From: Escherichia phage LMessi
Sequence record: PP925823.1
Strand: one strand, 5' to 3'
DNA length: 37,205 nt
Notes under the pieces: generated by a model
What the model was told of the DNA's origin: nothing
Database searches by the model: none
Seen by the model: the letters and a program-made list of their open reading frames with translations, nothing else
Shown: positions 26,338 through 27,026 of the stretch, in pieces
How positions within the stretch are numbered: the stretch's first letter is position 1
Layout of the letters: every line of letters begins with the position of its first letter
Position numbers and translations under genes: made by a program

Positions 26338-26637
26338 TCAAAGACTGGATATCCAATTTTCGAGTTCTGAGACTTCTGCGACCTCTTCCTGCTCTCCCCA
26401 CTTCAGCATCACGTCAGGAATGGTGAATTTCCCACCCTGAGAGTTCAGCATTGCAACGGAGATCTGCGCCGCCTGTGCATCGGCGCGCCAGTCACCAATC
26501 GGACTGATGCGGTCGAACTCGATCCACATTTTGAGCTCGCTGGCGGTCATGGTCTGGCGCAGTTCGTGAAGAGTGCGCCCCATCCGTAGCGCCAATGACA
26601 TCAGGAAAAAGGTCAGCGGCTGCTTTACGGCTTTCCC
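26338..26637 (-). CDS. frameshift extension of the tail assembly chaperone (lambda T-like part of GT)
   Basis: The -1 frame entered at the GGGAAAG heptamer (minus-strand 26637-26631) runs in frame into the 87-aa ORF at 26338..26601. Confidence 0.55.
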   Translation of the reverse strand, partial: GKAVKQPLTFFLMSLALRMGRTLHELRQTMTASELKMWIEFDRISPIGDWRADAQAAQISVAMLNSQGGKFTIPDVMLKWGEQEEVAEVSELENWISSL

Positions 26638-27026
26638 GCTTCTTCCTGGCTCATTCCGAGGTTGAGGGCCTGAGCCAGCAGGCGGGAGTGCACAGGACCA
26701 TAGATTTTAGATACCTGCTCCTGATCCTCATCGCTGAATACTCGCTCGCCGTTTTCATCCAGCAGAACGTCAATAAACAGAACCACATCAGCCTCTTTGT
26801 TACGCAGAAACTTTTCCGCCTCCGTCAGCGTCGGTGCCTCTTCGCCCTCGGCGAGCTGGGGATTAACGATCTCCCGGAATTTCACCCAGGCATCGCCAGA
26901 GGGTTCACGCAGCGTTACCTTTGCGCCATCCCATTCAGGGACCGTGATACCTTCTTTGGTGCGATAGGCTTTCGATGCTGTAAGCGCCACGTTGCGTAAT
27001 GAATTCTGTGATGTTTTTTGCGGCAT
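26625..27026 (-). CDS. tail assembly chaperone (lambda G-like)
   Basis: 133-aa acidic protein between the major tail and tape measure genes; ends ...GCG GGA AAG CCG TAA, carrying the slippery heptamer. Confidence 0.6.
   Translation of the reverse strand: MPQKTSQNSLRNVALTASKAYRTKEGITVPEWDGAKVTLREPSGDAWVKFREIVNPQLAEGEEAPTLTEAEKFLRNKEADVVLFIDVLLDENGERVFSDEDQEQVSKIYGPVHSRLLAQALNLGMSQEEAGKP

Follow-up and report, generated by a model that had tools for sequence, protein, structure and literature searches.

The window analysed here is the whole 37,205-nucleotide stretch of Escherichia phage LMessi DNA in record PP925823.1, and overall it is a mosaic lambdoid genome. On its minus strand two overlapping open reading frames, G and T, lie between the gene for the major tail (tube) protein and the gene for the tape measure protein, in the order tail tube, G, T and tape measure. 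T is in the –1 frame relative to G and overlaps the G 3′ end; the –1 frame is open from position 26706, which gives an overlap of 82 nt. The positions of the genes and of the smaller features at the locus are collected in Table 1.

Table 1. Features of the G–T locus and its surroundings
Feature	Position	Strand	Remarks
Terminator-like hairpin with T-run	27588..27571	minus	before the tail tube gene
Major tail (tube) protein gene	27081..27551	minus	156 aa; directly upstream of the chaperone gene
Terminator-like hairpin with T-run	27065..27082	minus	between the tail tube gene and G
G	26625..27026	minus	tail assembly chaperone ORF; 133 aa, product of standard decoding
Helix, first arm	26648..26639	minus	CAGGAAGAAG
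Slippery heptamer G_GGA_AAG	26637..26631	minus	0-frame GGA, 26636..26634; AAG, 26633..26631
T, counted from the heptamer	26637..26338	minus	
T part, –1-frame continuation	26338..26631	minus	97 codons and TGA stop
G stop (TAA)	26627..26625	minus	one codon (CCG) past the heptamer
Linker VKQPLTFFL	26602..26628	minus	nine –1-frame codons between the G stop and ATG 26601
Helix, second arm	26611..26602	minus	CUUUUUCCUG
In-frame ATG (Met)	26599..26601	minus	at the start of the T domain; conserved
Terminator-like hairpin GCCCGCGGCTGCGGGC with T-run	26321..26336	minus	after the T stop, ahead of the tape measure start
Tape measure protein gene	23016..26303	minus	1095 aa; directly downstream of T

The tail tube protein scores above the cut-offs of the Pfam families Phage_TTP_11 and Phage_tail_3 and matches phrog_158 (major tail protein, 1e-40), while the tape measure protein matches Pfam TMP_3, Phage_HK97_TLTM and Tape_meas_lam_C as well as phrog_339 (1012 bits). 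G belongs to Pfam family PF06222, Phage_TAC_1 (HK97 gp13 type), with 125.7 bits over residues 7–132 (cut-off 25; 1.3e-36), a family against which HK97 gp13 itself scores 203 bits. It also matches phrog_344 (tail assembly chaperone) and the protein of PDB entry 2OB9, the structure of the HK97 gp13 tail assembly chaperone, with an E value of 2.5e-29. G gave no match at E ≤ 0.01 to PF06894, Phage_TAC_2, the lambda gpG family in which lambda G scores 206.9 bits, and in a BLASTP comparison with lambda G there was no detectable similarity (E 0.93). No NCBIfam model matched G or the predicted fusion of G with T (GT). In the fusion, residues 161–221 match Pfam PF06223, Phage_tail_T, with 69.4 bits (cut-off 25.9; 3.6e-19), compared with scores of 54.1 bits for lambda T and 73.4 bits for HK97 gp14. 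The T part is also matched by phrog_337, beginning at residue 9 of the –1 peptide. Finally, the 224-position profile phrog_14766 aligns to G at its positions 3–120 and to the –1 peptide at positions 124–207 and thus describes a family of fused proteins.

The G–T region is 96.5–98.4% identical to that of phages mEp390, mEp506, ECP1, Fraca and HK542 and of two E. coli prophages, and the phages of this group with an assigned subfamily are Hendrixvirinae. At the scale of the window, positions 12206..37205, the structural and tail part, are ~93–94% identical to ECP1, mEp506, mEp390 and HK542. Positions 1..12205, which encode a primase/helicase, a Q-like antiterminator, an endolysin and an HNH endonuclease, are closest to CharmingMan (90%) and Fostie (96%), each with partial coverage. 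A tRNA scan returned no match.

The three terminator-like hairpins compare with 2.1 expected, and their count is not significant. Two of them (27588..27571 and 27082..27065) match the positions of terminators annotated in HK542, the one at 27082..27065 being annotated there as rho-independent, and the third (26336..26321) lies where HK97 has its moron gene (gp15) and a terminator. An ATG-initiated plus-strand ORF of 134 aa (26595..26999) is antisense to nearly all of G; it is an unsupported shadow ORF that could be mis-called as a gene.

The predicted slip site and its conservation

The G frame (ORF 27026..26625) ends ...GAA GAA GCG GGA AAG CCG TAA on the minus strand; the first-pass annotation of this DNA had read its end as ...GCG GGA AAG CCG TAA. 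The heptamer G_GGA_AAG, 130 codons from the G start, is the sole in-phase X_XXY_YYZ heptamer in the 82-nt overlap, and the wider range that had been assigned to the slip site, 26596..26645, takes in the G stop and the ATG of T as well as the heptamer. The same annotation had proposed that a –1 slip on G-GGA-AAG enters the frame of the T-like ORF 26601..26338 and, by eye, had found no intervening –1-frame stop. Both readings hold, as the phase is right and the –1 frame, whose translation from 26637 begins GKAVKQPLTFFLMSLALRMGRT..., runs for 99 codons without a stop from that position to the TGA at 26340..26338 and includes this ORF. For the GT fusion the predicted coding sequence is complement(join(26338..26631,26631..27026)), which would specify 229 aa. 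Among the predicted tryptic peptides of the fusion are QPLTFFLMSLALR, which spans residues upstream of the Met, and LLAQALNLGMSQEEAGK, whose G counterpart ends ...EEAGKP.

The sequence GGGAAAG occurs eight times in the window compared with 5.3 expected, so that the heptamer alone is unremarkable. Only one of the eight copies, that in the tail chaperone gene, combines slip phase and a place close to the end of a long ORF with an extended –1 continuation, here 95 codons past the 0-frame stop. At the other seven copies the –1 continuation ends between 5 codons short of the stop and 31 codons past it, and none of the seven is in the sense frame of the long gene-like ORFs of the window. If uniform base composition is assumed, the chance of finding N_NNA_AAG in the overlap is ~0.006 (~23 in-phase positions × 4/16384). 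A scan of all in-phase X_XXY_YYZ heptamers in window ORFs of at least 100 aa gave just three further sites with a –1 extension of comparable or greater length. All three, at 4469, 3451 and 21459 (plus strand), are in antisense shadow ORFs of minus-strand genes and are attributed to chance. A C_CCG_GGC heptamer at 21947..21941 (minus strand) is also probably a chance occurrence, as its –1 frame reaches only 25 codons past the stop; it sits in a 252-aa ORF of the tail region (22678..21920), 8 codons ahead of the stop.

Collections of genomes and viral contigs yielded 88 related loci. All 88 have an in-phase X_XXY_YYZ heptamer 7–10 nt before the G stop together with an open –1 frame, so that the slip site and the gene architecture are kept in homologues despite sequence divergence. 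The heptamer is GGGAAAG in 85 loci of the close clade, AAAAAAG in one Phytobacter locus (64% identity) and GGGAAAC in two Pseudomonas loci (31–33% identity). As canonical heptamers have been exchanged for one another at one place, the slip function is conserved and not the sequence alone. The –1 frame reaches 95–107 codons past the G stop in 87 of the loci and 64 codons in one; this last, a close relative with GGGAAAG, may have a truncated T domain or a sequencing error. The close relatives have diverged by only 2–13% and their 85 identical heptamers are non-independent observations; the argument from conservation is therefore based on the three divergent loci, on a set of ten more distant phages and on the frame-switch statistics given below.

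Among the ten more distant phages, six have a canonical heptamer, three have G_GAA_AAG and one has A_AAG followed by a stop. The G_GAA_AAG phages are HK97 (~744..750, CGG GAA AAG), AsXd-1 and ENT39118 (~781..787), and no canonical in-phase heptamer is present in these three. At such sites re-pairing of the P-site tRNA-Glu would, from the sequence, carry one mismatch. The remaining phage, Klebsiella phage ST101-KPC2phi6.3, has only GCA AAG and then TAA at once. Other phages with the same gene pair have A_AAA_AAG.

Selection on the two frames and the route to T

We compared 70 distinct sequences of the G–T region with 87–98% nucleotide identity. In the G frame 89 of 133 third codon positions are variable versus 48 of 266 first and second positions, and in the –1-frame T part the corresponding figures are 72 of 97 and 32 of 193. 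Both frames are open over the 69 nt that precede the heptamer, and variation there falls on the third positions of the G frame (16/23) and hardly on those of the –1 frame (1/23). In the linker, by contrast, it is the –1-frame third positions that vary (6/9 versus 1/18 for the others; Fisher p = 0.0017), and the peptide GKAVKQPLTFFLM is unchanged in 69 of the 70 sequences despite nine DNA versions. The linker motif P..F[FL]LM is kept in relatives down to about 31–33% G-protein identity. These comparisons indicate that purifying selection changes from the G frame to the –1 frame at the slip site.

There is no ATG, GTG or TTG in the –1 frame before 26601. The T part thus has no start of its own for its 5′ codons, with the caveat that an in-frame ATG is located further in. 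Since the linker codons are under –1-frame selection and have no earlier start codon, they are translated and reachable only from G, and we infer that they are reached by a –1 shift in or near the heptamer. Together with the conservation of the site, the selection data rule out a chance origin. The G-frame third positions also include an invariant run of seven that ends at the G stop; a run of eight is present elsewhere in G, and synonymous-site suppression at the slip site is suggestive only.

The in-frame ATG raises two other routes to T. If T were an independent 87-aa protein started at ATG 26601, the heptamer would be incidental. Conservation of this codon as Met in every HK97-type relative examined, but not in lambda (motif F-L-M-[ST]-L-A-L-R), favors such a start, as does the separate 87-aa ORF that begins at this position in all seven close-relative records checked. 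However, separate ORF calls are the default of automatic gene finders, no Shine-Dalgarno sequence is found in the 20 nt before the ATG (AGCCGCTGACCTTTTTCCTG), and the nine codons upstream of it are under –1-frame purifying selection with no earlier start codon. Moreover, the alignments of the family profiles begin before the Met, at residue 4 of the –1 peptide for phrog_14766 and at residue 9 for phrog_337, and lambda T has no Met there, lambda GT being made by frameshifting only (PMC5009743). We regard an independent T as highly improbable. Very unlikely, too, is a combination in which GT is made by frameshift and some free T arises by termination at TAA 26627..26625 and reinitiation at ATG 26601. 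The short distance of 23 nt from stop to ATG and the conserved Met of the HK97-type family would suit reinitiation, but there is no Shine-Dalgarno sequence to hold the ribosome, and the spacing varies, with the ATG 11 nt (HK97) and 2 nt (phi1026b) from the first base of the stop. The Met may be merely a conserved hydrophobic residue, and no free T has been described for lambda (PMC5009743).

The frame could also be changed by RNA polymerase slippage rather than by the ribosome. Long runs of A do occur at this point in some relatives (7 A in the AAAAAAG sites and 9 A in a Halomonas phage), but the runs in the window are only G3 and A3, and a run of ~9 A or T is needed for transcriptional slippage to be productive in bacteria (PMC5009743). 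In addition, the conserved X_XXY_YYZ phase matters for tRNA re-pairing and not for polymerase slippage, and we consider this route extremely improbable. The reading that we prefer, with a probability of about 0.9, is that the heptamer serves for programmed –1 ribosomal frameshifting in the tail-assembly chaperone gene pair of a lambdoid siphophage. The first-pass annotation had seen in it the conserved tail chaperone frameshift, and the gene order, the protein families, the heptamer, the open –1 frame, the lack of a separate start for the linker, a slip site in 88 of 88 relatives and the frame switch under selection all support this.

The corresponding gene model consists of the 133-aa chaperone and a predicted 229-aa frameshift fusion, and it corrects the public records of the closest relatives. 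Records that have no fusion annotation are those of mEp390 (GenBank and RefSeq), HK542, mEp506, ECP1, Fraca and the E. coli UMNK88 prophage. If the frameshift is true, it is wrong to annotate an 87-aa ORF on its own as a "hypothetical protein" or as "tail assembly protein T".

Proposed mechanism and likeness to known systems

In the proposed mechanism most ribosomes on G would read GCG GGA AAG CCG and stop, which would yield the 133-aa chaperone. A minority would slip with tRNA-Gly on GGA and tRNA-Lys on AAG. Both tRNAs would move back one base, onto GGG and AAA, and decoding would resume at GCC, so that G26631 would be read twice. The resulting fusion would consist of G residues 1–132, ending in Lys, followed by AVKQ... 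(AVKQPLTFFLMSLALR...) and would continue through the Phage_tail_T domain. In E. coli the heptamer G_GGA_AAG ranks with the most shift-prone, and for the single tRNA-Lys (mnm5s2U34) pairing is better on AAA than on AAG (PMC5009743).

The G/GT frameshift of lambda has been described by Levin, Hendrix & Casjens 1993 and Xu, Hendrix & Duda 2004, 2013 and 2014 (cited in PMC5009743). The lambda G:GT ratio is ~30:1 and matters for tail assembly (PMC5009743). Lambda G, alone or as part of GT, binds the tape measure protein, the T part attaches to the tail tube protein and sets off its polymerization, and neither product remains in the virion (PMC5009743). By analogy with lambda, G and the G part of GT would coat the tape measure protein here, the T part would recruit the tail tube protein, a low slip frequency would fix a high G:GT ratio, GT would be required for the tail to be built, and both proteins would be left out of the virion. 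The occurrence of the slip, its frequency and the roles of G and GT at this locus are all inferred in this way from lambda, and the earlier statement that the site sets the G:GT ratio likewise extends the lambda case to this phage.

The first-pass annotation had called the site lambda-type. This description is apt for the heptamer, the mechanism and the T domain but not for the G half, which is in PF06222 with HK97 gp13 and not in PF06894. The heptamer, its phase, the preceding codon (GCG GGA AAG) and the location near the G 3′ end are the same as in lambda, the order tail tube, G, T and tape measure is shared, and both T parts are in PF06223. In contrast to lambda, the G stop is one codon past the heptamer rather than five, the T part has 97 residues rather than 144, and there is a conserved Met where lambda has none. 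Lambda T lacks a separate start, and its annotation begins at the slip site.

With HK97 gp13/gp14 the locus shares the Pfam families of both halves, 53.6% identity of the G/GT protein and the type of head and tail module (Hendrixvirinae). In the HK97 record (NC_002167) gp13/gp14 is a joined CDS, "translated due to a -1 frameshift". The two loci differ in the slip site, which is the canonical G_GGA_AAG here and G_GAA_AAG in the 0-frame context CGG GAA AAG in HK97. The HK97 linker is also shorter (VKFLM), and its moron gene gp15, between T and tape measure, is absent from the window. The locus adds one more HK97-type chaperone paired with the lambda heptamer, in agreement with a view in which function maintains the slip site and G domains can be exchanged. 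The G/GT –1 frameshift is itself a well-known kind of feature, and it opens no new question here.

The tandem –1 slip, with the A-site tRNA-Lys moving from AAG to AAA, is also like that of E. coli dnaX at A_AAA_AAG (PMC5009743). Unlike the present site, where there is no significant downstream structure, dnaX combines a shift of ~50% with an upstream Shine-Dalgarno-like element and a downstream stem-loop.

Flanking RNA and a helix that brackets the slip site

The 101 nt that follow the heptamer form no fold more stable than those of shuffled sequences (z –1.08), and a scan with Rfam gathering thresholds gave no match. The equivalent segments of 11 divergent relatives contain no significant or shared structure (z –0.39 to +1.24), and RNAalifold, run on 22 clade sequences, found no covarying downstream hairpin. 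A conserved stem-loop or pseudoknot of the dnaX or IS911 type, 5–9 nt downstream, was not found at the site, and because only a low efficiency is expected no stimulator is required. Upstream, the only Shine-Dalgarno-like element, AGGAAG, ends 4 nt before the heptamer; it was not adopted as a stimulator, since inspection by eye shows no conservation of it in lambda, Phytobacter, Pseudomonas or the Stx phages. The Shine-Dalgarno-like element of dnaX has a spacing of roughly 10 nt, and 4 nt is the wrong distance for stimulation of a –1 shift.

The one element found by RNAalifold is a 10-bp helix that brackets the slip site (Table 1). Its 27-nt loop contains the heptamer and the G stop, and its 3′ arm abuts the conserved AUG 26601; at the DNA level it corresponds to a 10-bp inverted repeat, CAGGAAGAAG / CTTTTTCCTG. 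The second arm in most relatives is CUUCUUCCUG, a perfect complement (consensus CUUYUUCCUG), and the window has one G-U pair. The fold has a z-score of –1.66 in the window and –2.31 in the majority variant. All changes in the arms turn G-C into G-U pairs and none is a compensatory double change, the clade member that has diverged furthest has an uncompensated mismatch, and the helix is absent from the distant relatives. We consider it very unlikely that this clade-only helix tunes frameshift efficiency or masks the AUG region against free-T synthesis; if true, such a role would add a layer of control at the RNA level that has no described precedent among G/GT sites. By the time a ribosome reaches the heptamer, the 5′ arm would be melted. 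The helix is probably a by-product of purine-rich Glu/Lys codons that face Phe-Phe-Leu codons.
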